This document shows, one piece after another, positions 3,914-59,781 of a DNA stretch of 64,000 nucleotides (position 1 is its first letter; every line of letters starts with the position of its first letter). Below the pieces are notes generated by a model, which was not told the origin of the DNA, made no database searches, and saw only the letters and a program-made list of their open reading frames with translations. The stretch comes from Candidatus Poribacteria bacterium (GTDB lineage Bacteria > Poribacteria > WGA-4E > JAJDTR01), in the NCBI GenBank assembly GCA_965222225.1, contig CBDCTK010000002.1, forward strand, positions 4,032,001-4,096,000. The letters are read 5' to 3'. The position numbers and the translations under genes are program-made.

Positions 3914-6667
3914 ATGACACCCGAGCAAAAAGCGCGGCAAAACATCGACCAATTACTCACGGCAGCGGGCTGGACGATTCAGCACCGCGAACAGATGAAC
4001 CTTGGCGCATCGCAAGGCGTGGCGGTACGCGAGTTTCAGATGGCGTCCGGTCCCGCGGACTACCTGCTATTCATCGACAGAAAAGCTGCCGGAGCGGTCG
4101 AAGCCAAACCCGAAGGCACCACCCTCGGCGGCGTCTCCGAACAAACCGAGCGATACCTCACCGGGATTCCGGCGAACCTTCCATGCCATCAACGCCCTCT
4201 GCCGTTTGGCTATGAAAGCACCGGGGTTGAAACCTTCTTCCGTGATTTGCGCGAACCGGATTCCCGCTCCCGCCGCGTTTTCGCTTTCAACAGACCGGAA
4301 ACCTTCGCGCGGTGGATTGCACAGGGGCGCACCTTGCGGCACCATCTCAAAGAATTGCCGGCGTTGGATGTGCATGGACTGCGAAACTGCCAAATCGAAG
4401 CCATTGAGAACCTGGAGCGGTCGTTTGTCGACAATCGACCTCGCGCGCTAATCCAGATGGCAACCGGCAGCGGGAAAACGTACACCGCCGTGAGTTTCGC
4501 CTATCGGCTCGTCAAGTTCGCAAGAGCCAACAGGATACTGTTTCTCGTTGATCGCAGCAATCTTGGAAGGCAGACGCTAAAAGAATTTCAGCAGTATACC
4601 ACACCGGACGACGGTAGGAAATTCACGAAACTTTACAACGTGCAACATCTCGCCGCCAACCGGATTGACGAGGTGAGTAAGGTCTGTATCACTACGATTC
4701 AGCGGCTGTATTCGATGCTGAAAGGAGAGCCGGATGTGGATGAGCAGATCGAGGGGCGTTCGTTGTACGACCTTGGATTGGCGAATCAAGCCGCCGAGGT
4801 GGAATACAACCCCGCCATCCCCATCTCGACGTTTGATTTCATCATCACCGACGAGTGCCATCGCTCGATCTACAACCGCTGGCGGCCAGTGCTGGAATAC
4901 TTTGACGCTTTTATCGTGGGTCTCACCGCTACGCCGTCAAAGCAGACGCTCGGATTCTTCGATCAGAATTTGGTCACGGAGTATAGCCACGAGCGCGCGG
5001 TTACCGATGGCGTCAACGTCGGGTATGAGGTGTACCGCATCAAGACAGAGATTACGGAGCGGGGCGACGTCGTCGAAGCTGGCTTTTACGTTGACAAACT
5101 GGACAAACGTACCCGCGCAACTCGATTGGAACAGCTTGATGAGGACATGGAATACGGCGCGAATCAGCTTGACCGCGCTGTGGTGGCGCCCGACCAGATT
5201 CGCACCGTGATTCGAACATTTCGAGAGAATCTGTTTACGCAGATTTTTCCCGGCAGAACTGATGTGCCCAAAACGCTAATCTTCGCCAAGGACGACTCGC
5301 ACGCCGAGGACATCATGCGCATCGTCCGCGAAGAATTCGCGCGGGGCAACGAGTTCTGCAAGAAGATTACTTACCAGACAACCGGCGAGAGACCGGAAGA
5401 TTTGCTCGCCAGCTTCCGAAACTCCTACAATCCGCGCATCGCGGTTACGGTGGACATGGTGGCTACCGGGACGGATATCAAGCCGCTGGAGTGCATTATC
5501 TTCATGCGAAACATCAGATCAGCGGTCTACTTTGAGCAGATGAAGGGCAGAGGCACCCGCACGATATCGTCAACAGATTTGCGGGCGGTCACACCTGACA
5601 CCGCTCATAAAACCCATTTCGTGATTGTCGATGCGGTCGGCGTTTGCGAGAATGACAAAACCGATTCCCGACCGTTTGAGCGGAAACGCAGTGTGCCGCT
5701 TGATAAACTGCTTGAATCCGTCGCGCTCGGTGCCCGAGATTCCGATACCCTGACGACGTTGGCGAGCAGGCTGGCGCGTCTGGACCGCCAGATCGAAGGT
5801 GATGCGCGGCATCAGATTGCCGAAGTGTCGGGAGGCGTCTCCCTGCGCGATATGATTCAAAACTTATTTGAGGCAACCAATCCGGACGAACAGCCTGAAG
5901 ACGGGCAACCCCTTATATTGACGGAATCGACCGAGGAATACCTAACGCCGGAGTTGATTCGGGAGAGGATGGATCAACTCGTTACCGAGGCGTGCAAACC
6001 TTTCGACAATCCCGAATTGCGTAACACCCTCGTTGAACTGAGAAGGCAACACGAGCAGACGATTGACATCGTAAGCCAAGACAGCGTCATCTCCTCGGAA
6101 TTTGACGAAGCGGCTAAGGAGCGAGCGGAGCGCCTCGTGAACGGCTTCAAGCAGTTTATTGAAGACAACAGAGACGAGTTGACAGCGATTCAGCTTATCT
6201 ACAGCAAACCCTACGGACAGCGCAATCTCACCTATCAGCAGGTTAAGGAGCTTGCCGATGCCATCGAAAGACCGCCGTACCAACTCACGCAAGAGAAATT
6301 GTGGCAGGCTTACCAACAGTTGGAACAATCGAAAGTCAAGGGGGCGGGAGCGCAAAAACTATTGACCGACATCATATCGTTGGTGCGTTTTGCGATTGAG
6401 GAGACTCAGACGCTTGAACCTTACAGAGAATCCGTAAATCGGCGGTTTCGGGGATGGCTCGCCGATCAGGAAAGGCAGTTTTCGGCGGAACAGATGGCGT
6501 GGCTGGAGATGATTAAAGACCATATTGCCACGTCGCTAAATATTGAAATGGAAGATTTTGCGGAAATACCGTTTCAGGCAAAGGGCGGGGCGATTAGGGT
6601 GCATCAGTTGTTTGGCGAGGAGTTGACCCAGATCCTGGCGGAGCTGAATGAACGGCTGGCAGCGTAA
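3914..6667 (+). CDS. hsdR: Type I restriction endonuclease subunit R (EcoEI/EcoAI-like)
   Basis: ADY..VEAK nuclease motif, MATGSGKT Walker A, DECH box, QMKGRGTR, EcoEI_R_C-like tail. Confidence 0.95.
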   Translation: MTPEQKARQNIDQLLTAAGWTIQHREQMNLGASQGVAVREFQMASGPADYLLFIDRKAAGAVEAKPEGTTLGGVSEQTERYLTGIPANLPCHQRPLPFGYESTGVETFFRDLREPDSRSRRVFAFNRPETFARWIAQGRTLRHHLKELPALDVHGLRNCQIEAIENLERSFVDNRPRALIQMATGSGKTYTAVSFAYRLVKFARANRILFLVDRSNLGRQTLKEFQQYTTPDDGRKFTKLYNVQHLAANRIDEVSKVCITTIQRLYSMLKGEPDVDEQIEGRSLYDLGLANQAAEVEYNPAIPISTFDFIITDECHRSIYNRWRPVLEYFDAFIVGLTATPSKQTLGFFDQNLVTEYSHERAVTDGVNVGYEVYRIKTEITERGDVVEAGFYVDKLDKRTRATRLEQLDEDMEYGANQLDRAVVAPDQIRTVIRTFRENLFTQIFPGRTDVPKTLIFAKDDSHAEDIMRIVREEFARGNEFCKKITYQTTGERPEDLLASFRNSYNPRIAVTVDMVATGTDIKPLECIIFMRNIRSAVYFEQMKGRGTRTISSTDLRAVTPDTAHKTHFVIVDAVGVCENDKTDSRPFERKRSVPLDKLLESVALGARDSDTLTTLASRLARLDRQIEGDARHQIAEVSGGVSLRDMIQNLFEATNPDEQPEDGQPLILTESTEEYLTPELIRERMDQLVTEACKPFDNPELRNTLVELRRQHEQTIDIVSQDSVISSEFDEAAKERAERLVNGFKQFIEDNRDELTAIQLIYSKPYGQRNLTYQQVKELADAIERPPYQLTQEKLWQAYQQLEQSKVKGAGAQKLLTDIISLVRFAIEETQTLEPYRESVNRRFRGWLADQERQFSAEQMAWLEMIKDHIATSLNIEMEDFAEIPFQAKGGAIRVHQLFGEELTQILAELNERLAA

Positions 6668-10548: not shown

Positions 10549-11993
10549 ATGCCAAACGATTCATCAGCCATCGTACAAAAACTGTGGAATTACTGTAACG
10601 TCCTCCGCGATGACGGCATCAGCTACGGCGATTATGTGGAGCAGTTGACCTATCTGCTGTTCCTGAAAATGGCGGACGAGCAGACCAAACCGCCGTTCAG
10701 CAAGGAGTCCGTCGTCCCCGCGGGGCTAGACTGGGAGAGCCTGGTTGAGAAGGACGGCGACGCCCTCGAAACCCACTACCGCCACATCCTTGACGAATTG
10801 GGCAGGCAGAGCGGCACGCTGGGCGTCATCTTCAGAAAATCCCAAAACAAGATTCAAGACCCCGCCAAACTCAAGCGGATCATTCAACTCATCAACAATG
10901 AGACGTGGAGCGGCTTGGATGCCGATGTGAAGGGAGACATCTACGAGGGCTTGCTGCAGAAGAACGCCGAGGACACCAAAAGCGGCGCGGGTCAATACTT
11001 CACCCCCCGCCCGCTGATTCAAGCCATTGTGGAAGTGATGAGACCGGAACCGATGCAAACCATCTGCGATCCGGCGTGCGGCACCGGCGGTTTCTTTCTG
11101 GCAGCGCATGACTATCTGTCCGCCCGAAGCGATCAGCTCGACAGGTACAGAAACAATTTCTCCGATACGATACGTTTCACGGCACGGACATCGTGGACAG
11201 CGTGGTCAGGCTGTGCGTGATGAACCTGCACCTTCACGGCGTCGGCGGCGATGAGAGTCCCGTGAAGACGGGGGATAGCCTAATCTCGAATACGGGTGAG
11301 CGTTTTGACATGGTGTTGACGAATCCGCCGTTTGGGAAGAAGAGCAGCATCACGATTGTGGATGAGAAGGGAGCGGCTGGAAAGAACTCGCTCATCTACG
11401 AGCGGGAGGATTTTTGGGCGACCACGTCCAACAAGCAACTGAACTTCCTTCAGCACGTCAAGACAATTCTGGAAATCAACGGCAAAGCGGCGATTGTCGT
11501 GCCGGATAACGTCCTGTTTGAAGGCGGCGCCGGTGAGACGGTTCGCAGGAAATTGATGCACGAATGCGATCTTCATACGCTGCTCCGACTCCCGACGGGT
11601 ATCTTCTACGCGCAAGGCGTCAAGGCAAATGTGCTGTTCTTCGATCGCAAGCCCGCCAGCGAAACCCCGTGGACGGAAAAGCTATGGATATACGACCTCC
11701 GAACCAATAAGCGGTTCACGCTGAAAACAAAGCAGATGCGTTACGACGCCCTTCACGATTTCATCGCCTGTTACAATCCCGATAACCGCCATGATCGGCA
11801 AGAGAGCGAGCGATTTAAGTCGTTCTCGTACGATGAATTGATGCAGCGGGATAAGGTGAGTCTGGACATCTTCTGGCTGCGGGACGAAAGTCTTGAGGAT
11901 ACCGAGAATCTACCGGAACCCGATGAATTGGCGGGAGAGATTGCCGCGAATCTGGCGGCGGCGTTGGAGCAGTTTCAGGACATTTATGAGTAG
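10549..11993 (+). pseudogene. hsdM: Type I R-M N6-adenine methyltransferase M, split by a 1-nt frameshift near 11145
   Basis: GQYFTPR and DPACGTGGF in frame 1; NPPFG in the downstream frame; ...DR.QKQFLRYDTFHGTDIVDSVVRL joins them if 1 nt is added at gacaggtacag. Confidence 0.9.
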
Positions 11994-19646: not shown

Positions 19647-19752
19647 GGATCTCTATGGAAATTCTATCGCCCTCACTATTCGTTCGGTTGATCGCTCCCT
19701 ATGGGATATACTGTCAAGTTTGCTATCGCCTTCCTTATCCAGTCAGTTGATC
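19647..19752 (+). mobile_element. VB-unit cluster inside a ...CTCGCCCCTAC REP
   Basis: ggatctctat ggaaattctatcgc-cc-tc-ac-tattc-gt-tc-gg-ttgatc ... ctatcgc-ct-tc-ct-tatcc-ag-tc-ag-ttgatc. Confidence 0.8.
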
Positions 19753-19827: not shown

Positions 19828-20910
19828 ATGAGAGCTGCACGTTTTTATGGAGGTAAAGATATTCGAGTCGAAACTGTGCCGGAGCCAGAGCCGGAGGAGC
19901 GCGAGGTACTCGTTGAAGTCCAAGCAACCGGCATCTGCGGCAGTGACCTGCACGGCTATCACCATCAGCCGGATAAACCACGACCCCCTGCAACAGGCGG
20001 ACACGAACTCACGGGACGAGTCACCGGCGTTGGGGTGGCGGTTCGTCAATATCAGATCGGCGATCAGGTCGTCGTCGAGCCGATAGTCCCATGCAACAAT
20101 TGCCCTGAATGTCTAAACGGCAATTACAATCTGTGTTCAAAGCTCATTCATATCGGCGGTTCCAGAGGAAAACGTCTGGGCAATGTTTTCAGCGGGGGCT
20201 TTGCCGAGTATATGGTTGCGCCCGAAGATAACGTCTACGAATTACCTAATCGGGTTTCGTTCGAGGCGGGAGCAATGGCTGAAGTTTACGCCGTAGCCGT
20301 CCACGCCTTGTCGATGGCGCCAGTCCATCCGGGCGATAGCGTGGCGGTCATCGGCAGCGGTCCGGTCGGTTTGGCGCTCGCGCAGATGGCGCAACTGGCT
20401 GGTGCGGTGTCCGTCGCTGTCTTGGGCAAACCGGACGCGCCGTTACAAATTGCCAAAGAGTCGATCGGCATCTTCCCGATTAACGTAGACGCAGCCGACG
20501 CGGTCGAGGCAGTCCAAGCGTGGACGAACGGTCGCGGCGCGAATGTCGTCTTCGAGGCGGTCGGCGGAAGGGCACAAACGCTTCAGCAAGCGACGCAGAT
20601 TGCCGCGATACGGGGGAAAATTTGTATGGTCGGTGGACACACCGGCGCGCTTGAGTTGGACACGCGGTTCGCAAGGGGTCGTGAATTGACCCTCACGTGG
20701 TCATTCTGCTACGGTCGGCGAGATGGAAAGCGGGAGTTTCAGATTGCGCTCGACCTGATGGCGGCCGGCAAACTCGACCCAATGCCGTTAATCACTCACC
20801 GTTTCCCACTAGATGAGATTCAACAGCCGTTTGCCGTCGCCGCCGGACGTGATGAACACGGCTCGGTGAAGGTTCTGGTATTGCCCTCCGACTCACACGG
20901 AGATCACTGA
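19828..20910 (+). CDS. Zn-dependent MDR alcohol/sugar dehydrogenase (copy 1)
   Basis: GICGSDLH, GHE, CxxCxxC-x7-C structural Zn site, GSGPVG. Confidence 0.92.
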   Translation: MRAARFYGGKDIRVETVPEPEPEEREVLVEVQATGICGSDLHGYHHQPDKPRPPATGGHELTGRVTGVGVAVRQYQIGDQVVVEPIVPCNNCPECLNGNYNLCSKLIHIGGSRGKRLGNVFSGGFAEYMVAPEDNVYELPNRVSFEAGAMAEVYAVAVHALSMAPVHPGDSVAVIGSGPVGLALAQMAQLAGAVSVAVLGKPDAPLQIAKESIGIFPINVDAADAVEAVQAWTNGRGANVVFEAVGGRAQTLQQATQIAAIRGKICMVGGHTGALELDTRFARGRELTLTWSFCYGRRDGKREFQIALDLMAAGKLDPMPLITHRFPLDEIQQPFAVAAGRDEHGSVKVLVLPSDSHGDH

Positions 20911-21223: not shown

Positions 21224-21355
21224 GATCAAGGGAGCGAATAGCGACTGCGATAGGGATCTTAAATAGAGATCAGGATTTACTATGGGAGTTCTATCGCACT
21301 CATTATTCATTCGCTTGATCCATCCTTATCCAGTCGGTTAATCGATAGAATTCCC
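21224..21355. mobile_element. Mixed-orientation VB-unit cluster inside a GTAG...GCGCAATTYATTGCGC REP
   Basis: Flanks match the uninterrupted copy at about 52576-52640. Confidence 0.85.
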
Positions 21356-21416
21356 TTTATTGCGCGTCTTCTGTAGGAGCGAGTTCTGCTCGCGATAGGA
21401 GGTCGCGATTCGGAGA

Positions 21417-21453
21417 GGGATCTCTATCGCACTCACTATCCGTTCGCTTGATC
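21417..21453 (+). mobile_element. Clean single 37-bp VB unit in the REP GTCGCGATTCGGAGATCGCTCCTAC
   Basis: gtcgcgattcggaga [gggatctctatcgcactcactatccgttcgcttga] tcgctcctac; uninterrupted REP at about 10503, 28553, 31400, 34028. Confidence 0.9.
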
Positions 21454-21517
21454 GCTCCTACAATCCTTTGGATGCGTCACTGCGTAAGTCCTAAGTTCGA
21501 CGTTTTACGTTTGTAAG

Positions 21518-21678
21518 GATTAAACAATCGGATAGCGATCGGATAACGATCAAAATTTTCTATCGCACTTGGATGTCTATCGCACTAACTGTGGGATCTA
21601 CTATTAGGATTCACTATCGCACTCATTAGCCATTCGCTTGATCCTTCGCTATCCGCTCAGTTGATCGTTCCTTTGATC
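21518..21678. mobile_element. Large nested VB-unit cluster
   Basis: Several GGAT..CTAT heads followed by three successive ...TTGATC tails. Confidence 0.8.
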
Positions 21679-33926: not shown

Positions 33927-34073
33927 TGCAACTCCTTTTTCTAAAGTGTGGTATAAACAACTCTCAATGGGCGACAGATCGCCCCACCAAAGTAACAGTT
34001 TCTAGATTGCATAAGATTGTGCAATTTGTCGCGATTCGGAGATCGCTCCTACCAGTGTGCTTCCCGTGGGAGG

Positions 34074-34120
34074 AATCAAGGGAACGGATAGTGACCGCGA
34101 TAGAATTCCCATAGAGATCC
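34074..34120 (-). mobile_element. VB unit with an extra head, in a REP pair
   Basis: aatcaa-gg-ga-ac-ggata-gt-ga-cc-gcgatag-aattccc-atag-agatcc. Confidence 0.85.
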
Positions 34121-37050: not shown

Positions 37051-37346
37051 CCCAATGCGCCGTTCCGCCGATAAAAATTCGAGACTTGAACCACTGGACG
37101 TGCGTAGGTTGGGTTGAACGGGAATCCATGAGAAATCACACGCGGAAGAAAGGTTCTCGAGATTTCATCCCACCAAAGAAATGCTGGAATTCGAGTGAAA
37201 CCCAACACGTTATCGCACACGCAGCAGTTGGGTTTCGCTATATTCGTGAAGACGAGTGGGGCACTGGAAAGCCGAATTCTCCTTTGAAACGCGATAGAAC
37301 TTGGTTATTGATTGCTCAACCCAACCTACAGAAGACCCGCAATAAC

Positions 37347-37446
37347 GGGATTTCTATGGGATCGCTATCGCCCTAAGAGCTCTATCGCATTCGCTAATCG
37401 CTCATTTGATCCTATCCGGTCGGTTGATCTATTCGCTCCCTTTATC
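37347..37446 (+). mobile_element. Nested VB-unit cluster
   Basis: gggatttctat gggatcgctatcgc... ctatcgc-at-tc-gc-taatc-gc-tc-at-ttgatc ctatcc-gg-tc-gg-ttgatc tattc-gc-tc-cc-tttatc. Confidence 0.8.
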
Positions 37447-37566: not shown

Positions 37567-39574
37567 CTATTTCAAGATCAGCATCTTCCGCGTAGCGGAA
37601 AAATCCCCTGTGGTCAAGTGATAGAAATACACGCCACTTGCCACCCCTTCACCGAAGTTGTTGCGACCATCCCAGTACGCCGCCCTCCCCCGATCGGCAT
37701 AATACCCCGCCAACCGATGCCCCAAATCCAGCCGACGAACCATGAAACCACTGGCATCATAAATCGTCAGAGCGACCTCCGCATCTCTTGAGAGTTGGTA
37801 AGGTATCCACGTCTCCGGGTTGAACGGATTCGGATAGTTTGGCAACAATGCCGTCTCCTCTGGTGTCAAGGTGGCCTTGAGTTACTCTAGCAGCAGCACA
37901 CCCATTTGGGTCGTTGCATCCGTCAAGTCTAGCGTTTGCGCTTGAGCCAACCACTGTCCCACTTCTGTAGCCGTCAGCATCGCCAGTGCTCGTGGATCTG
38001 CGGACGGCGCCGCCGCGTTCCCAAACGCACCCGCAACCAACACCAAATCCAGGATGTTAACAACGCCATCCCTATTGACATCCGCCGCCAAGTCTGCCCC
38101 CGCATCGCCGAGATTCGACGCCACCGACACCAAATCCAAGATATTCACCACATCGTCCTCGTTCACATCCTCCGGAATCGGGGGAGGTTCGGCAGTTGCA
38201 TTAACGGACTGCTCCTCCAGTATCCCTGTTACAGATACAGTAACGGTGTTTATTCCCGGATTTGGTCCCAATGTTAGGATACTCTCCGCTCTACCGTTGC
38301 TATCGGTCATGGCGATTGTCGCACTGAGCGTCCCGCCGTCCGCCGTAACGGAGAATATGACCTGCGCACCTGGTAAGGGTTCGCCGGACTGGTCTCGCAC
38401 CTCCACCACAAACGCTTTTGCCAGCGCCGTCCCGGGCGCGCCCTGGTTGGTTGTCGCCCGAGATTATCTCCAATGACGTGGGTACTCGGACGCCTTCGGC
38501 GGTAAACGTCTGTTCACCCTGAACACCAGTTACAGTCACCACAACAGTGTTCGTTCCCGGTTCGGGATCCAACGTGAGCCTACTCTCTGCTCTGCCATTG
38601 GCATCAGTCGTGACGCTTGTCGCACTAAGCGTCCCACCCCCGCTGCTAACCGAGAATGTCACTTGAACCTCTGGTAAGGGTTGGTCGGATTGGTCTCGCA
38701 CCTCCACCACAAACGCTTTTTCAAGCGCCGTGCCCGGCGGTCCCTGTTGCTCGTCGCCCGAGATTATCTCTAGTTTCTTGGATGTCCGGATTCCTTCGGC
38801 GTTGAAGATTTGTTTTTCTTGAATCCCCGCAACAGACGCTTCAACGGTGTTTGTTTCCGCGCCTGGCCCTAACGTAAGAACGCTTTCCGTCCTGCCGTTG
38901 GCATTTGTCGTCGTGTTAGTGCTGCTGAGTGTCCCGCCGCCCGCCGTGACGGAGAATGTAACCGGCACCCCCTCAAACACAACACTATTCCCATCCTGCA
39001 CTTCAACGATAAACGGGCTTGCAAGTACTGCGTCAGGCGACCCCTCTTGGTCATCGCCTGAAACCATGCGAATTGTCCGGGGCATTCGGTTGTCGAAGAT
39101 TGCTTCAACCCCTCTTTCCTGTAAGGCAGGAATGTGTGTGCGGATGGATGCGTAGTTGAGTGAGTTTCCATGCACACCAACTTTGTCTTCACTCCCCAGC
39201 CCTGAGTTTGCTACTAGCGGCGAGAGGTCCGATATCGTGTTGCCCACAAGAGACAACCAAATCAGGTTGGTTAAGCCCGCCACAGGCGATATATCCGATA
39301 TCATGTTGTTCGCAAGGTTCAGGTTTGTCAGGTTGATGGCAAACTTCAACCCTGTTAAATTTCTAATATTGGCGTTTCTGGCTTCAAGGCGATCCAACGT
39401 TTCCATCTCGGCGGCGGTGATTGTGGCACCCGACGCTTTGTTGAGCGCCATCCCAATCGCAGCGCGGAGGTTGGAGTCGGGGATATCCACGACTTGTGCT
39501 GCTGTGGTTAGCGGTAGAGTAAGGAAAATTGACAGGAGAAAAGTGAATCGAAAAAGTTGTGTTTTCATTGACAT
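37567..39574 (-). pseudogene. Secreted LRR + Ig-like (Big_1) repeats + dockerin-like + T9SS-like C-terminal domain protein, disrupted
   Basis: Signal peptide, internalin-like LRRs, three SGDxQxG..VEV.D Ig repeats, DVNxDxVVNILDLV twice, NYPNPFNPET tail; +1 frameshift near 38445 (caa ccag ggc) and in-frame TAA at 37882-37884. Confidence 0.85.
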
Positions 39575-40524: not shown

Positions 40525-40614
40525 AATCAAGCGAGTGGACAGCGAAGGATCAAAGGAGCGAATAGCGACTGCGATAGTAAATCCTGATAACAAATCCCGT
40601 ACGATAGAGATCCC
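40525..40614 (-). mobile_element. Nested VB-unit cluster in a GTAGG REP
   Basis: Two ATCAA tails and three ATAG/ATAA..ATCC heads. Confidence 0.8.
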
Positions 40615-40923: not shown

Positions 40924-43122
40924 ATGGCTTGGCGTCTAATCCTTATTTTGTCCGTGCCTTTCATTGTGCTGCTCGGGTGCCAATCTCAAGATTCCCGGAA
41001 TACCCAAGATTCCGAGAGCACGAAGTCACCAGTTGAAAACTCACCCAAGTCAACCGGAAAGCTGAGCGCCCCCCAGACCCGCCCCGAAGATTGGGCGATG
41101 TTCATGCACGATGTGCATTTTTCAGGTAAGAGTCCGGATCAGACGCTCAAGCCGCCGCTAAAGCCGCGCTGGAAATTCAAGACCGGCGGTCCTATCCACG
41201 CAAGTCCCATTATTGTCGATGGCACGGTCTACGTCGGCTCGACGGATGGCAAACTGTACGCGCTTGATGCAAAGCAGTGGGGGGTGAAATGGACGTTCCG
41301 GAGCGGCGATGCCATCCGCTATGCCGCGGCGGTGTGGAACAATCACGTCTGCTTTAGTTCGAGAGACAATCATGTGTACGCCCTCGACGCCAAAACCGGC
41401 GAACTCGTTTGGAAATTCAAATCGGAGACTTGGATAGATTCACCGCCAATTATCTCCAACGGGCAGGTCTACATCGGTGCATTCACGCGCACGATTCACG
41501 TCATTAACGCAACAACGGGAGAAGCGGAGGGAAAACGCCGAAATCGCGTGCAGATTGACGGGATTGAATTCGGCTGTGCTCAAGGTAAATTGCGTCCAAT
41601 TATTCCTGAACACGAAGCTGAGTTGTGGCGGAGTTATGTGGATTACACCTACAGCTTTCCTGTCAGAGCCAATGGCGTGGTTTATATTGGCGCGCGAGAC
41701 AATCATATCCACGCCATCGACGCTGCATCGAAAAAGAAGGTCTGGTCATACGAGACGCGGGGGTTTGTTGACGCGGCTCCTGCGGTCTCCGATGGCTTGC
41801 TTTTCGTCACGTCCCATGATGGCTATGTATACGCCTTCGAGAATCGGACAACGGAATCCCCGCAACCGGATGAACGGCAAGTTGGAATCGTGGTGCACGA
41901 TGAGGCGCCTGTCTATCCTGCCAAAGACTCCGATTCGCCCGTGAAACTTCACCTCAACGACGGCGTCAAACTCCCCATTCTGAATGAAGGGGGTGGTTGG
42001 TATCAAGTTGAACTTCCGGACGGCGAATCCGGGTGGATGGACGAATTTGCCATCGGTAGGTTTGAAGAAACCGACGACGTGCAATTCAATACCTCGATTT
42101 GCTCCAACATCCGTACCTTGGAACTGATTGAGGGTGGTGAATATCCGTACTGGTCGCCCGACGGAAAAGCAATCGCGTTTTTCAAACGAACGAATCTCTC
42201 CGGTCAATATTGGAAAGCGAGCGAAATCTGGATTACGGATAGGGAAGCGAAGCGCTTTCGGAAGTTGTGCGAGGGGAGGTTCTACAATCCACACCTGTCA
42301 TGGACATTCAACGGCAATCTGCTCGCGTTTGAGGCACGTAAAGAGGGTGAGAGCGAAGTATGGACATTTGATCTGAAAACCGCGCGTCTAACCAACCTCG
42401 TGAGCGGCGATGCACCGGTATGGTCGCCAGTCGCGAACAAACTCGCGTTCAGGCGGTGGGAAAAAGGGTTCGATGTCGTGTATCGAATCAACAGCGATAC
42501 AACCGGCTTGGCGCCAATTGCTCGTATCCCGATTGAAGGAAGGGTCGGCGCGTTCAGTTTTTTGGATAAGCCGTCTTGGTCGCCGGACGGAGAGCGAATC
42601 GCCATTGGGCTGGATCACCAGCACTACAAGTCGGGGTACGCCCGCATTCGATTGCAGAACGTCAACGGAACAAGGCTCGGAGAGATACGTACCCAGCATC
42701 AGCGCGTCAAGCAGATCAATTGGTCGGCGGACGGAACAGAACTTGCCTATGTGCTGCTCGGAAGTATTCGCCCCGACCGATTGCTGGACAAACGCCTTCA
42801 CGTCACGGATGTCAATGAACGAAGCCGCACAAGGATTCTCAAACACACGTCGCCGTCATGGTCGCCCCAAGGAAAGTACCTCGCCTATATGGAGCGTGAG
42901 GATTGTATGGGCTTGCAATGGAAGGTGTGGATACTTGATATGGAAACGAATCGGAAGCGGGCTGTTGCACGAGCGGCGGGGGTTCTCACCTCCATTACAT
43001 GGTTGCCCGGAGGGAAACAACTCTGTCTATGGCACACCTCCGACTACCTGCGCGGCGGAGAGTATAAACCCGCCACGACCAAGGGATGGGTTGCGGATGT
43101 CGCCGTGGTGCCGGTGCGTTGA
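40924..43122 (+). CDS. Lipoprotein: PQQ/BamB-like propeller + SH3b + TolB-like (PD40) propeller
   Basis: Lipobox LLG-C; YVGSTDGKLYALDA..W repeats; GWYQVELPDGESGW; WSPDG repeats. Confidence 0.8.
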   Translation: MAWRLILILSVPFIVLLGCQSQDSRNTQDSESTKSPVENSPKSTGKLSAPQTRPEDWAMFMHDVHFSGKSPDQTLKPPLKPRWKFKTGGPIHASPIIVDGTVYVGSTDGKLYALDAKQWGVKWTFRSGDAIRYAAAVWNNHVCFSSRDNHVYALDAKTGELVWKFKSETWIDSPPIISNGQVYIGAFTRTIHVINATTGEAEGKRRNRVQIDGIEFGCAQGKLRPIIPEHEAELWRSYVDYTYSFPVRANGVVYIGARDNHIHAIDAASKKKVWSYETRGFVDAAPAVSDGLLFVTSHDGYVYAFENRTTESPQPDERQVGIVVHDEAPVYPAKDSDSPVKLHLNDGVKLPILNEGGGWYQVELPDGESGWMDEFAIGRFEETDDVQFNTSICSNIRTLELIEGGEYPYWSPDGKAIAFFKRTNLSGQYWKASEIWITDREAKRFRKLCEGRFYNPHLSWTFNGNLLAFEARKEGESEVWTFDLKTARLTNLVSGDAPVWSPVANKLAFRRWEKGFDVVYRINSDTTGLAPIARIPIEGRVGAFSFLDKPSWSPDGERIAIGLDHQHYKSGYARIRLQNVNGTRLGEIRTQHQRVKQINWSADGTELAYVLLGSIRPDRLLDKRLHVTDVNERSRTRILKHTSPSWSPQGKYLAYMEREDCMGLQWKVWILDMETNRKRAVARAAGVLTSITWLPGGKQLCLWHTSDYLRGGEYKPATTKGWVADVAVVPVR

Positions 43123-43123
43123 G

Positions 43124-43252
43124 AACAAGGGAATGGATAATGAGTGATCGCACGACCGAATAGAATCAAACGAGTGGATAGATCAAATGAGCGATTAGCA
43201 AGCTGGATTTACTATGGGAGTTCTATCGCACTCATTATTCATTCGCTTGATC
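43124..43252. mobile_element. Mixed-orientation VB-unit cluster
   Basis: Several ATCAA-VB-GA-VB-GRATA tails, then ggatttactatgggagttctatcgcactcattattcattcgcttgatc (identical to about 21273-21320). Confidence 0.8.
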
Positions 43253-43376: not shown

Positions 43377-43865
43377 TCACCGCGAACCACCAGACTTAAT
43401 CCGCCCCCACTGCGTCAGACGATTTCCTTTGGGCGCAACCGCCAACGTCCTCCCAAGTGCGTAGCCTGCTCCATCCCATGCCGCTATTCCACCTTCCAAC
43501 ACTTTCAACCGCTCATGCGCATATCCGAATTCATCCATTAGCAATCGTGCCGCACGGGCACTTGTCGCTTCCGCAGGTCAGCTTCAGTAGAACACCATCA
43601 ACCCCTCTTTGGGAAGCTCCGCATGTCGCATTTCAAGCTGCGCAAGCGGAATAGAGACCGCGTCCGGAATATGCGCTTCTCTGTATGCCCGTTCGCTGCG
43701 AACATCCACCACTACTACCTTCGCTCCACTGTCAAGTAGGCGTTTGAGTTCTAGTGGCGCGATCCGCTCCGGCTCTTCCGCAAACCCGAGTATCCGAGTC
43801 AACGGGAGCAGACATAGGAACGCGATGCCAATGACGACGCTAAGATTCCTGTTCAATCGCTTCAT
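43377..43865 (-). CDS. Secreted rhodanese-like protein, candidate selenoprotein with a U-S-U motif (162 aa by readthrough)
   Basis: RBS aaggagg; ...VVVDVRS...HIPDAVSIP...MVFY-TGA-S-TGA-PAEATSARAARLL...LEGGIAAWDGAGY...AVAPKGNRLTQWGRIK; frame stays open after both TGAs. Confidence 0.85.
43547..43561 (-). promoter_or_regulatory. Candidate bacterial SECIS hairpin
   Basis: mRNA GUGCC-CGUGC-GGCAC; loop starts 21 nt after the second UGA and 27 nt after the first, with G at loop position 2. Confidence 0.55.
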
Positions 43866-43946
43866 AACTAACCTCCTTTTGCAATGAGAGTTGACCGCAA
43901 ATCGCGACCATCTCCGAATGGCGACATCCTGTAGGTTGGGTTGAAC

Positions 43947-44016
43947 AATCAAGCGAGTGGATAACAAGTAATCAAGGGAATGGATAATGACCGCGATAGA
44001 GTTCCCATAGAGATCC
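43947..44016 (-). mobile_element. VB-unit cluster in the loop of a GTAGGTTGGGTTGA/GAAACCCAAC REP
   Basis: gtaggttgggttgaac [aatcaa...agatcc] ggtgaaacccaac; uninterrupted relatives near 54278 and 57698. Confidence 0.85.
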
Positions 44017-44284
44017 GGTGAAACCCAACTATTCAGCTCCTTTCTAGTATACCATTGTATACAATTTCTGTCACCTGACAAACCACCTGTATCACCGAAG
44101 CCTTCAAGCTAGACAGCGGATTGTATACAGGCATTTTCACGTGTGCTATAATAGGCAACTTCCAATAACAAATCTCACATCTTGACCATAGCCTACGGCG
44201 CGCCGTCCCCGCTCTTGCCGGATTCCCAGTAGTAGGCATACTCCGCCGTGCCGTAACCCTTGTGCAGATTACGGCACGGCGGAG

Positions 44285-44427
44285 AATCAAGCGACTGAAT
44301 AAGGATCAGGGGAGTGGAAAGCGAGTGCGATAGAGATCTTAAGGCGATAGTAAATCCCGTGCGATAGAATTCCCATAGAGATCCCCGCGATAGAGATTTT
44401 TCTTGCACCGCCCGCGATAGAACTCCC
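44285..44427 (-). mobile_element. Large VB-unit cluster with at least five heads
   Basis: Repeated gcgatag-NN(N)atcc/tccc heads after aatcaa/gatcag tails. Confidence 0.8.
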
Positions 44428-44551: not shown

Positions 44552-45634
44552 TCAGTGACCTCCGTGTGAGTCGGAGGGCAATACCAAAACCTTCACCGAG
44601 CCGTGTTCATCACGTCCGGCAGCGACGGCAAACGCCTGTTGAATCTCATCTAGTGGGAAACGGTGAGTGATTAACGGCATTGGGTCGAGTTTGCCGGCCG
44701 CCATCAGGTCGAGCGCAATCTGAAACTCCCGCTTTCCATCTCGCCGACCGTAGCAGAATGACCACGTGAGGGTCAATTCACGACCCCTTGCGAACCGCGT
44801 GTCCAACTCAAGCGCGCCGGTGTGTCCACCGACCATACAAATTTTCCCCCGTATCGCGGCAATCTGCGTCGCTTGCTGAAGCGTTTGTGCCCTTCCGCCG
44901 ACCGCCTCGAAGACGACATTCGCGCCGCGACCGTTCGTCCACGCTTGGACTGCCTCGACCGCGTCGGCTGCGTCTACGTTAATCGGGAAGATGCCGATCG
45001 ACTCTTTGGCAATTTGTAACGGCGCGTCCGGTTTGCCCAAGACAGCGACGGACACCGCACCAGCCAGTTGCGCCATCTGCGCGAGCGCCAAACCGACCGG
45101 ACCGCTGCCGATGACCGCCACGCTATCGCCCGGATGGACTGGCGCCATCGACAAGGCGTGGACGGCTACGGCGTAAACTTCAGCCATTGCTCCCGCCTCG
45201 AACGAAACCCGATTAGGTAATTCGTAGACGTTATCTTCCGGCGCAACCATATACTCGGCAAATCCCCCGCTGAAAACATTGCCCAGACGTTTTCCTCTGG
45301 AACCGCCGATATGAATGAGCTTTGAACACAGATTGTAATTGCCGTTTAGACACTCAGGGCAATTGTTGCATGGGACTGTCGGCTCGACGACGACCTGATC
45401 GCCGATCTGATATTGATGAACCGCCACCCCAACCCCGGCGACCCGTCCCGTGAGTTCGTGTCCGCCTGTTGCAGGTGGACGTGGTTTTTCCGGCTGATGG
45501 TGATAACCGTGCAGGTCACTGCCGCAGATGCCGGTTGCTCGGACTTCAACGAGTACCTCGCGCTCCTCCGGCACCGGCTTTGGCACAGTTTCGACTCGAA
45601 TATCTTTACCTCCATAAAAACGTGCAGCTCTCAT
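44552..45634 (-). CDS. Zn-dependent MDR dehydrogenase (copy 2, inverted near-identical paralogue of 19828..20910)
   Basis: Same length (1083 nt) and same upstream ttaaccccggaggaacagatg; 9 aa differences by eye. Confidence 0.92.
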   Translation of the reverse strand: MRAARFYGGKDIRVETVPKPVPEEREVLVEVRATGICGSDLHGYHHQPEKPRPPATGGHELTGRVAGVGVAVHQYQIGDQVVVEPTVPCNNCPECLNGNYNLCSKLIHIGGSRGKRLGNVFSGGFAEYMVAPEDNVYELPNRVSFEAGAMAEVYAVAVHALSMAPVHPGDSVAVIGSGPVGLALAQMAQLAGAVSVAVLGKPDAPLQIAKESIGIFPINVDAADAVEAVQAWTNGRGANVVFEAVGGRAQTLQQATQIAAIRGKICMVGGHTGALELDTRFARGRELTLTWSFCYGRRDGKREFQIALDLMAAGKLDPMPLITHRFPLDEIQQAFAVAAGRDEHGSVKVLVLPSDSHGGH

Positions 45635-46057
45635 CTGTTCCTCCGGGGTTAATTTAACGTGAGTTCGACGTAAGAAGCTACGTGACGAGTGATGAGTGAT
45701 AGGTGAATTTTCACCTCTCACTCCTCCCAGATTTTGTCGGCATATTTGAATGAATGCGATGGTATCGACACCAGCGGCACTGTGTCGGGGACGACCACTG
45801 AAGGTGACGATGCCGCTGGACGAAGCAGAGCGTCACGAATGGCAGGCCATGTCGAGTTATGACTCGTTTGCGTGGCTTGCCAGCCAACTGCGCCAAGCAT
45901 TAGAGCCATGGCAGCGTGGCTCTGGATGGCAATTGAGCTGTCCCAAGGCATCTCGCCAAACCATCGAAGCAGTTGTGGTGTACGAAAGTTCCTTTCCCCG
46001 TCTAATATTGGCGATTCTGACGCCGACGTTTTTCAGCCCCTTGGTTTCGGGCGATAC

Positions 46058-46699: not shown

Positions 46700-47055
46700 A
46701 TGGCTAAACGAAGGAGATTCACATCCCAATTTAAGGCTGAAGTCGTTATTGAGGTACTTACCGGTCAAAGTTCACAAGCGGAACTTTGTCGGCGGCATAA
46801 CCTCAGCCAAGAGCAATTATCAAAGTGGAAACACCAACTTCTTGACAACGCAGCGACTCTCTTTGAATCCACTGACAAGCAATCCACTGATTATAGAGAA
46901 CGGATTGCTCAACTGGAGCAGCTTGTTGGGATCAAACGAACGATCAACTGAGTGGATAACGAAGGCGATAGCAAATCCCATAGTGAGTGCGATAGGGATC
47001 CCTAGTGAGTTTGGCGTTAGACATCCAAAAAAAAGCCTTGACTTTGCTCAATTGA
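46700..47055 (+). pseudogene. IS3 orfA interrupted by a nested VB insertion
   Basis: Removing 46932-47002 restores ...EQLVGIVSLALDIQKKALTLLN*. Confidence 0.85.
46930..47002 (-). mobile_element. Two-level nested VB insertion (inner unit 46942-46979)
   Basis: Reverse complement: gggatccctatcgcactcactat [gggatttgctatcgccttcgttatccactcagttga] tcgttcgtttgatc. Confidence 0.9.
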
Positions 47056-48186: not shown

Positions 48187-48295
48187 GAGATTTCTATCGC
48201 AGTCACTTTGGGATTTACTATCGGGATTAGCTATCGCAGTCATTGTCCATTCCCTTGATCCTTCGCTATCCACTCAGTTGATCGTTCGTTTGATC
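48187..48295 (+). mobile_element. Three-level nested VB insertion in a GGCGGAGG/CCCCGCCTAC REP
   Basis: A 48187-48209, B 48210-48222, complete C 48223-48260, rest of B 48261-48283, rest of A 48284-48295. Confidence 0.88.
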
Positions 48296-48734: not shown

Positions 48735-49439
48735 ATGAAGAAATTCGCATTTACAATGTCAGCAGTTTTCGTGCTATTGAGTGGTATTGTGATAATGATA
48801 AATCCATCGGCGCAAGAGACCGAACTAGCGCAGATCGTCTTCCACTCCAATCGGGACGGGAATAAAGAAATCTACGTCATGGACGCCGATGGGAACAATC
48901 TACGCAGGTTAACAACAAATCTATGGGCTGATTCCGATCCGGCATGGTCCCCTGATGGCCAAAAGATTGTCTACCATTCCACGTGGCGTGGGCGCCCTAC
49001 AGTCTTCGTCATGGATGCCGATGGTAACAATCAACAAAAGTTAACAAACAATAAAATTAGAGCGTTTGATTCAAGTCCGGCGTGGCCCCCTAGCGGTCAA
49101 AAGATTGCCTTAGTCTCCACCCGTGATGGCAACAAAGAAATCTACGTCATGGATCCCGACGGCGAGCATCAACTCAGACTAACAAACAATAAAAGGGATG
49201 ACAACTATCCAGCCTGGTCACCTGACGGTCAACAGATTGTTTTCGTGTCTAGGCGGGACGGGAACTTTGAAATCTACGTCATGAATTCCGATGGGAGGAA
49301 TCAAACTAGGCTGACAAACAATCCCGCTACGGACAGCGAACCGGCTTGGTTCGATCCCCGTTTTGCACGGGCGGTGGAGCCTCCAGGTAAGTTGAAGTCT
49401 ACCTGGGGAAAGATCAAGGGATATCAAAGGAAGGAATGA
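48735..49439 (+). CDS. Secreted TolB-like (PD40 repeat) protein
   Basis: Signal peptide; SNRDGNKEIYVMDADG..LT repeats, WSPDG; C-terminal AVEPPGKLKSTWGKIK. Confidence 0.85.
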   Translation: MKKFAFTMSAVFVLLSGIVIMINPSAQETELAQIVFHSNRDGNKEIYVMDADGNNLRRLTTNLWADSDPAWSPDGQKIVYHSTWRGRPTVFVMDADGNNQQKLTNNKIRAFDSSPAWPPSGQKIALVSTRDGNKEIYVMDPDGEHQLRLTNNKRDDNYPAWSPDGQQIVFVSRRDGNFEIYVMNSDGRNQTRLTNNPATDSEPAWFDPRFARAVEPPGKLKSTWGKIKGYQRKE

Positions 49440-49498
49440 ATCAAGCGACCGATCAAGTGACCGAATAGGGAACGCGATAGAGTTCCCATAGAGATCCC
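49412..49498 (-). mobile_element. VB-unit cluster overlapping the stop codon of the PD40 gene
   Basis: gatcaaggga tatcaaaggaaggaat gaatcaagcgacc gatcaa-gt-ga-cc-gaata-gg-ga-ac-gcgatag-agttccc-atagagatccc. Confidence 0.75.
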
Positions 49499-52142: not shown

Positions 52143-52270
52143 GAGCGATCTCCCGGTCGCGACCACAGTTACTACCCATTTTCGGTAGGTCGGGCTTCCA
52201 GCCCGACCCGCGCGCGCGATAATAAACAAAGTAGCCTGTAGTGTGCGATAGAACTCCCCTAGAGATCCCG

Positions 52271-58274: not shown

Positions 58275-59096
58275 ATGCTGAGATTGAAACACCTCGCAAT
58301 CCGCTTTTTTGTCGTCGCATTTGTCTGCGTATTGCCTGTCGTGGGAGATAGCGCCGAAGTCCCCGAAGTAGCATTCCACTTCACCATGGATGAAATAAGT
58401 GGTGACGAAACCATGGATGTCAATGGCATGGTGGGAATTCTTGAAAATGGTCCCGTCGTGGTTGCCGGTAGACATGGAAACGCGATTCAGTTTACACGTT
58501 CTGATGAACAAGCCATTGAAATTTTCCCGGATCCCGCCACAAACTTTGGCACTGGCGATCTTAGCTTGGAAGCCTGGGTTAAGACTCCTTTTGACCAGGA
58601 ACAGTCCTACATCTTTAATAAGTGGGGCCCCTGGGAGGCGCCGGAGACTCCGTGCTGTAGGGGATACCGGCTTACTATTGAGCCGGGCGGCCAGCTTGAT
58701 ACCATATTTAATGATGGGGTCCCGGACGATGAACGCCTCGCCAACGAAGGCTTCGTTAGGGGTAGTGACACCTCGGTTGCCGATGGCGAATGGCATCATG
58801 TGGTCGTGACTCGGAAGGATACATCAATCATCCAGTTCTGGATAGATGGTGTACTCGACCACGAGATTGAAGAAGCCGCAGCTGCTGGTTCGATTGATAA
58901 CACCACCAATCTGTATCTTGGCAGAAGCCACAAGAATAGGGGCTGGTTTGACGGTCTGATCGACGAGGTTCGCGCGTGGAGGGGAGCTCTGAACGAAACA
59001 CAAATTGCTCAAGCAATGAGCGGAGCCGCCGTCACTGCCGTTGAACCCGTGGGGAAACTTCCGCTAATCTGGGGTCAGATAAAAGCTGACCATTAG
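58275..59096 (+). CDS. Secreted LamG-like jellyroll protein
   Basis: Signal peptide, SLEAWVK, DGEWHHVVV, FDGLIDEVR; C-terminal AVEPVGKLPLIWGQIK. Confidence 0.88.
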   Translation: MLRLKHLAIRFFVVAFVCVLPVVGDSAEVPEVAFHFTMDEISGDETMDVNGMVGILENGPVVVAGRHGNAIQFTRSDEQAIEIFPDPATNFGTGDLSLEAWVKTPFDQEQSYIFNKWGPWEAPETPCCRGYRLTIEPGGQLDTIFNDGVPDDERLANEGFVRGSDTSVADGEWHHVVVTRKDTSIIQFWIDGVLDHEIEEAAAAGSIDNTTNLYLGRSHKNRGWFDGLIDEVRAWRGALNETQIAQAMSGAAVTAVEPVGKLPLIWGQIKADH

Positions 59097-59521: not shown

Positions 59522-59781
59522 TTTCCAACCGCACCCAGCCCCGCCCCTACGGATATCGAGCGCCATGAAATCATCTTCTGTGGCGGCCCCATCAATGAAT
59601 GGGTTGGTATTCCCTCGCCCAAGTCTACGTGGAGATTAACAGTTTGAGACATTGAATCCGCATGACTTACACCCTAAAACGCTTAACTTGATCCCTATGG
59701 GGAGTGCGATAGAGTTCCCATAGCATTCCCCATGTTGATAGCACGCTATCGGCGTTGAATCCCTGCGATTTTGAGTTCACC

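Follow-up and report, generated by a model that had tools for sequence, protein, structure and literature searches.

Does the 93-codon reading frame that stops at a TGA in this stretch of Candidatus Poribacteria DNA (64,000 nt, analysed whole and here called the window) conceal a longer gene, whose product would carry two selenocysteines (Sec, U)? An earlier note on the same DNA had proposed a hidden, exported rhodanese with two recoded UGA codons. Once both in-frame TGAs are read through, a single-domain rhodanese of 162 amino acids (aa) is read from positions 43865 to 43377 of the minus strand (coding sequence 43377..43865), with orthologues aligned over residues 1-159. From its ATG at 43865, the frame comprises 93 codons, a TGA (43586-43584), AGC, a second TGA (43580-43578), 66 open codons and a terminal TGA (43379-43377). 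A Shine-Dalgarno-like AGGAGG (43872..43877, minus strand) lies 6 nt 5′ of the ATG, and a consensus scan alone yielded a candidate sigma-70-like promoter (44046..44074, minus strand; 10 of 12 consensus positions plus an extended TG).

The rhodanese domain (residues 38-131; 43473..43754, minus strand) extends across both TGAs, matching Pfam PF00581 with an E value of 3e-15 and 56.9 bits (gathering cutoff 22.2) over positions 3-100 of its 102-position profile. For residues 29-162, an AlphaFold2 model computed from a 47-sequence alignment with TGA read as Cys had a mean pLDDT of 90.5, and its top Foldseek matches were rhodanese-fold proteins. The best of them, the BH2092 rhodanese (PDB 3nhv; rmsd 1.9 Å, TM 0.71, 32% identity), is the closest solved fold; it differs in its YCWGPxC loop, which has no Sec, and is a structural-genomics entry with no function in its title. 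The first TGA (43584..43586, minus strand; predicted Sec94) occupies the canonical catalytic-Cys position, with which the Cys of YCWG in 3nhv and 3o3w aligns, and in the model is the first loop residue after strand 89-93, the loop being followed by helix 100-113. The second (43578..43580, minus strand; predicted Sec96) is residue 3 of the active-site loop and, by comparison of loci, the more widely shared Sec position. Model, Foldseek search and 3nhv alignment concur in a rhodanese fold whose active-site loop opens with Cys or Sec. Without read-through, judged from the model, the 93-aa chain would miss this loop and half of the fold, and thus read-through is needed for a complete rhodanese. 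An acidic residue (P-x-E) is conserved in the loop, which contains no basic one; classical rhodanese loops carry basic residues. A CX5R loop, the motif of the Cdc25/arsenate-reductase type, was considered and rejected, as the residue six positions after U94 is Ala, not Arg.

Relatives with CxC, CxU or UxU at the motif, for which the earlier note had proposed a search, were all found. Among 160 candidates the protein search gave 45 matches, one of which (84% identity) carries the NCBI name Ca. Poribacteria. Thirty-six of the 45 stop exactly at Tyr93, directly before U94 (the stop codon is inferred for 35 of these shortened database proteins, and P0025 matches an ORF of locus L001); the remaining nine comprise one ending in Y-C-S, one with W-S-W, three whose sequence diverges or changes frame ahead of the motif, and four other rhodaneses. 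The downstream half is annotated as a separate 53-aa protein in three of the four matches from a search for shorter proteins. A scan of GTDB genomes returned at least 598 pattern matches and at least 398 relatives, of which the best 80 were kept as loci. All three Poribacteria loci among these (L001-L003; 51-55% identity over residues 1-159) carry TGA-AGC-TGA, while the other 77 consist of one U-T-U locus (L018, Anaerolineales; TGA-ACT-TGA), nine C-x-U loci (eight from Chloroflexota and one from Pyrinomonadaceae), six C-x-C, no U-x-C and 61 of other rhodanese types. L001 and L002 lie on complete Poribacteria chromosomes (OZ244587.1 and OZ242315.1).

At codon 94, TGA is found in L001-L003 and L018, and TGC or TGT in the CxU and CxC relatives; at codon 96, TGA is found in all 13 TGA-bearing CxU or UxU loci and a Cys codon in the six CxC loci. 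Both TGAs align with Cys in those six loci and in at least 72 CxC proteins, as had been claimed for the YCxCPxE subfamily, and the downstream frame is conserved in the three Poribacteria loci that keep the TGA pair. In a profile search, the 120 listed of 1,756 matches were sorted by regular expression into 72 CxC, 20 CxW, 10 other and 18 unclassified proteins. Two close relatives among the database proteins, P0092 and P0211, have C-x-R at the motif, where the Arg could stem from a TGA-to-CGA change, that is, from loss of the second Sec. Another form of Sec-rhodanese was encountered in sulfate-reducer lineages: its in-frame TGA lies five residues beyond the loop Cys (Y-C-x-G-x-x-U), as seen in L068 (10001-10558; twice, in tandem domains), L074 (10001-10330) and L078 (7650-8003).

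A hairpin, GUGCC-CGUGC-GGCAC, lies over codons S102-R107 (43547..43561, minus strand) and was assigned as a bacterial SECIS (bSECIS) by comparison. Its stem of 5 bp closes a 5-nt loop in which positions 2-3 are G-U; from UGA94 to the start of the loop the distance is 27 nt, and from UGA96 it is 21 nt. The bSECIS consensus, as given in the accessible text of PMC13188914, comprises a loop of 3-9 nt, an upper stem of 4-16 bp, a G in the first two loop positions, a spacing of 16-37 nt and a minimum free energy (MFE) of −7.5 or lower. One hairpin is therefore compatibly spaced from both UGAs, as had been proposed; loop, stem and the G at loop position 2 also conform, and the MFE does so only with flanks (−11.5 to −14.4 kcal/mol, against −6.4 kcal/mol bare). 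Because the bare hairpin is no stronger than this and the 91-nt region is no more stable than its shuffles (z = −0.26), the support for the SECIS is comparative, not thermodynamic.

All 14 TGA-bearing genes, which come from three phyla, contain the hairpin, and none of six CxC genes does; in the six CxC loci the residues under it (S-A-R/G-A-A) vary freely. Its 15-nt pattern, derived from the same sequences in which it was counted, stands at a fixed distance from UGA96 and is found nowhere else in the window or in 1.1 Mb of loci. Three stem pairs are invariant among the 14 sequences, and one covaries between U-A (8) and C-G (6) with no exception, at synonymous third positions of Ser and Ala codons; both states are represented among Chloroflexota, where even the sister rows L009 and L011 differ. 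None of 500 shuffles reached this covariation (the shuffle ignores relatedness), and slid controls scored lower. The outermost pair is broken in 4 of the 14. An RNAalifold consensus kept four pairs and no conserved lower stem, and gave no sign of a second hairpin confined to UxU genes; thus, if both UGAs are recoded, one SECIS must serve both. Judged from the sequences compared, the hairpin is a real, functional SECIS. A read-through scan of the window gave two other TGA-plus-hairpin matches (8121, plus strand; 12068, minus strand), both at the ends of apparently complete ORFs.

Selection was compared between the two halves of the gene, using pN/pS as uncorrected proportions for the window against L001, L002 and L003. 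Identity is 57-59% over residues 108-158, at a pN/pS of 0.32-0.37, and 52-55% over residues 30-93, at a pN/pS of 0.40-0.54. The relaxed downstream half of which the earlier note had warned is therefore not seen, and purifying selection on this half indicates that it is translated. Furthermore, pS over codons 94-107 is 0.15-0.25, against 0.63-0.78 in the flanking domain regions, and 0 over codons 102-106; such low synonymous divergence just after the UGAs points to constraint at the RNA level.

In a 35-row tree, built with both motif positions masked and after removal of 16 of the 24 unrelated rhodanese rows in alignment A3, L018 was placed inside the CxU clade, behind a 96/93 branch. Separate origins of UxU in Poribacteria and Anaerolineales, for which this placement speaks, were not retained, as a single UxU clade was not rejected by the AU test (p = 0.296). 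The series suggests that Sec, with its SECIS, first appeared at loop position +2 (CxU), a change of the catalytic Cys codon to TGA coming later. Since the distance of the SECIS from UGA96 does not differ between CxU and UxU genes, a second Sec at position 94 would reuse the existing SECIS.

Export, also proposed earlier, is predicted by a probable Sec-pathway signal peptide at about residues 1-29 (43779..43865, minus strand), judged by eye from hydropathy. It shows a basic N-region, a hydrophobic core (Kyte-Doolittle 9-mer peak of 3.1 around residues 10-19) and a small-residue cleavage site near residue 28-29, with no twin-arginine motif. Many CxU and CxC relatives likewise begin with signal or lipoprotein-like leaders, and four loci (L007, L020, L023 and L030) encode membrane-protein fusions, L007 with DedA-family matches. 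At the other end, the C-terminal motif that had been described as lineage-type is borne out: the tail AV-x-P-K-G-x-x-x-T-x-W-G-x-I-K (residues 142-157; 43395..43442, minus strand) is conserved in L001-L003 and in the database protein P0059, and forms a short helix in the model at pLDDT 55-69. No NCBIfam model matches the WG-x-I-K tail, nor was it found in the published work searched on Poribacteria secretion motifs, where the accessible part of PMC3909097 mentions only a T9SS-like domain. The tail is a candidate lineage-specific C-terminal sorting signal by its sequence. Similar tails (AV-x-P-x-G-K-L-x-x-x-W-G-x-I-K) were observed in unrelated, signal-peptide-bearing proteins (TolB-like propeller, LamG domain) encoded at 48735-49439 and 58275-59096 (both plus strand) of the window and at 5443-6096 (minus strand) of L003.

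Standing alone, the rhodanese gene faces a convergently oriented PQQ/beta-propeller gene (40924-43122) and has a Zn alcohol dehydrogenase gene on its upstream side. No neighbours near the gene are shared between the window and L001-L003, the single match being to a distant window ORF; the neighbourhood is thus not conserved, and context yields no substrate. A MerA/dihydrolipoamide-dehydrogenase-like flavoprotein, scoring below all family cutoffs shown, is encoded directly 3′ of the UxU gene in L002 (10496-12001, plus strand), and one of the same type in L003 (14871-16376, plus strand); as the latter is 4.4 kb from the UxU gene and no blastp match exists in the window, a flavoprotein disulfide reductase was dropped as context evidence.

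Several other features of the window were recorded. A dispersed, degenerate intergenic repeat of ~19-nt units lies on both sides of the rhodanese gene and in both orientations across the window, at or near 338-406, 19647-19692, 21225-21670, 34071-34120, 37345-37371, 40525-40577, 43126-43251, 43936-44025, 44285-44384, 46943-46986, 48231-48287, 49452-49497, 52245-52268 and 59706-59723. It gave 19 blastn HSPs (self included) in the window and no match in the 80 loci, the three other Poribacteria among them, and is possibly a REP- or MITE-like element of the species. Two near-identical Zn-dependent alcohol dehydrogenase genes (19828-20910, plus strand; 44552-45721, minus strand) lie 24 kb apart. 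A leucine-rich-repeat/Ig-like surface protein with a T9SS-like C-terminal domain (37567-39574, minus strand) is split by frameshifts or stops into ORFs 38300-39574, 37882-38409 and 37567-37869, whose similarity to internalin/intimin repeats is weak and below cutoff. Judged from the translations, a type I restriction-modification methylase-like gene (10549-11993, plus strand) apparently falls into two ORFs that overlap (10549-11220 and 11193-11993), and ORFs upstream of it resemble HsdR and HsdS.

As for the decoding machinery, the window gave no tRNA or Rfam match and, by eye, no evident sel gene among its ORFs, and no tRNA-Sec was found in the 9 of the 80 loci that were scanned. In the accessible COG table of PMC5649159, whose columns were matched by hand, SelA/SelB/SelD counts are 4/1/2 for the Poribacteria genome bin44, 2/1/1 for bin70 and 2/1/1 for WGA3G; another Poribacteria MAG, in the available part of PMC13582414, has two each of SelA, SelB, SelD and tRNA-Sec together with a UxxU hydrogenase. 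According to these published tables, selA, selB and selD are known from four other Poribacteria genomes, and tRNA-Sec from one of them.

The earlier note overestimated the novelty of a UxU rhodanese. A UxU form of a 'rhodanese-related sulfurtransferase' selenoprotein was already predicted in symbionts of Olavius algarvensis (Zhang & Gladyshev 2007, PMC1976440), where, as here, a second Sec in a rhodanese selenoprotein gives UxU. That form, reported as new, belongs to a small metagenomic set drawn from marine-invertebrate symbionts, and the accessible text of its account makes no mention of export signals, SECIS sharing or Poribacteria. A CxU rhodanese selenoprotein subfamily appears in two reviews and corresponds to NF041203 in the part of PMC13188914 available. 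NF041203 (rhodanese_LYCAU, form 3, CxU) is the best NCBIfam match for the window protein (72.9 bits; positions 7-122 of the 126-position profile) and for each of the 12 tested relatives from the subfamily, with scores of 69.9-78.6 for the orthologues and 51-85 for the relatives. Sec at loop position +2 is common to both, whereas the window protein has two Sec rather than one and adds the WG-x-I-K tail; as 72.9 bits is below the cutoff of 115, it works like the NF041203 family but is not a member.

Exported single-domain CxC rhodaneses and DedA-rhodanese fusions (YCxCPxE) share the loop with Cys in place of Sec, but have neither TGA nor hairpin. TsoB (NF045694), a rhodanese/DsbD fusion with UxxxxU described in PMC13188914 (accessible part), is likewise rhodanese-like with two Sec, yet differs in motif spacing and architecture; the single-domain window protein scores 20.9 bits against its cutoff of 805. 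A parallel for shared decoding is offered by UxxU Group 4 [NiFeSe] hydrogenases, one example of which is from Poribacteria: in the text available from PMC13582414, two close UGAs are proposed to share one downstream SECIS, which is unchanged between CxxU and UxxU. They differ in being another protein, in having UGAs 9 nt apart (6 nt here) and in the metal-ligand role of the motif. In the literature searched, with most subscription journals outside its scope, no description of the Poribacteria UxU clade (lineage-wide, with signal peptide and WG-x-I-K tail) and no experimental test of any bacterial UxU protein were found, and the accessible part of bioRxiv 10.1101/2022.07.06.499078 has no mention of rhodanese. 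The window gene is a new, lineage-wide instance of an already predicted kind of double-Sec rhodanese.

Taken as a whole, the locus is very probably an intact, stand-alone Ca. Poribacteria gene for an exported rhodanese with two selenocysteines, U94-S-U96. That both UGAs are recoded appears almost certain from the sequence comparison, and that Sec is inserted at both sites is highly probable. Following the known SelB/SECIS pathway, SelB with Sec-tRNA would act on the one hairpin to decode both UGAs. The protein would then leave the cytoplasm by way of its signal peptide, with the WG-x-I-K tail as a possible guide to a further destination. There, U94 would take up a sulfane sulfur or a selenium atom in a selenopersulfide-type intermediate, and U96 may resolve the adduct through a small U-x-U diselenide ring. 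Such a rhodanese would be an extracytoplasmic sulfur/selenium carrier or redox enzyme, not a classical thiosulfate:cyanide sulfurtransferase. Given two Sec, a role in sulfur/selenium transfer or redox chemistry is the one that we favour, with modest confidence; binding of soft metals or metalloids is conceivable, if not expected, and other roles are doubtful.

Other readings of the two TGAs have to be weighed against this one. A sequencing error, or a pseudogene that acquired two nonsense mutations, has nothing in its favour but the presence of the stops: the same two TGAs recur in three other Poribacteria species, the genes contain no other stop or frameshift, and the hairpin covaries. With the TGA pair conserved and the downstream half under selection, this reading is ruled out for practical purposes. 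The case for an alternative genetic code, in which TGA would mean Trp or Gly and the loop would be an inactive W-x-W, is that Trp, against which the earlier note had cautioned, does occur at these codons in database proteins: P0002 has WSW, P0059 WGW, and the 20 CxW proteins belong here as well. However, P0199 and P0198 of the CxW set match L004 (97% identity) and L017 (92% identity), loci with TGA in their DNA at this codon, and Trp is thus most likely an artefact of gene calling with TGA=W; the Trp residues of P0002 and P0059 presumably arose in the same way. Moreover, TGA is an ordinary stop in the window, ending many genes, the rhodanese gene included, and 28 of the 63 ORFs of at least 150 aa (a count that takes in shadow ORFs as well as plausible genes). 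On both grounds a changed code has next to no probability.

Inefficient or regulated read-through, by which the main product would be the 93-aa chain or a split pair and the double UGA a selenium-dependent switch, gains from the need to decode two UGAs, one of them 27 nt from the loop, and from gene callers annotating the halves as 93-aa and 53-aa proteins. It is very unlikely nonetheless: the 93-aa product would be missing half of the fold together with the active-site loop, purifying selection is of similar strength on the two halves, and a split gene with an internal start was rejected because Met110 is not conserved, being Ile in L002 and L003. A selenium-dependent yield, for its part, is compatible with the double-Sec explanation and no replacement for it. 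A different matter is which amino acid is inserted. Both UGAs may be recoded, yet with Cys inserted at one, most likely at UGA94 as the more distant from the hairpin, by a tRNA of the tRNA-ReC (selC*) type in a SECIS-dependent manner, giving CxU or a mixture. In its accessible part, PMC13582414 reports tRNA-ReC to be enriched in genomes with UxxU hydrogenases (about 56% versus about 2.3%) and cautions that Cys may be inserted at one or both UGAs, and CxU is the commoner form among the relatives here (nine loci against four UxU loci among the best 80). Against it, the same text places tRNA-ReC in Armatimonadota, Desulfobacterota and JAPLJL01, and its sole Poribacteria genome, which is not the source genome of the window, has two tRNA-Sec and no tRNA-ReC. 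Cys at one site is unlikely by our estimate. An extended version, in which one SECIS directs dual decoding 6 nt apart, with Sec at 96 and Cys at 94 through a tRNA-ReC-like tRNA (or a selenium-dependent Cys/Sec mix), and the tail is an undescribed WG-x-I-K sorting signal, is quite unlikely; if true, Poribacteria would adjust the chemistry of an exported enzyme's active site through the genetic code itself.

Two selenocysteines in one exported rhodanese thus stay the preferred reading, and its meaning is that of a useful extension rather than a surprise, the UxU motif itself not being new. If true, what is annotated across the lineage as a 93-aa 'fragment' would be corrected to a 162-aa double-selenocysteine exported enzyme. 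The CxC/CxU/UxU series, with its identical 15-nt SECIS, is a compact test case for double decoding from a single SECIS, and so bears on the questions raised in the accessible part of PMC13582414, namely whether one bacterial SECIS decodes two UGAs at different distances and whether the far one is read as Sec or Cys. Poribacteria, described in PMC3909097 as dominant members of sponge microbiomes, would, on the same condition, join the hosts of extracytoplasmic selenium chemistry.
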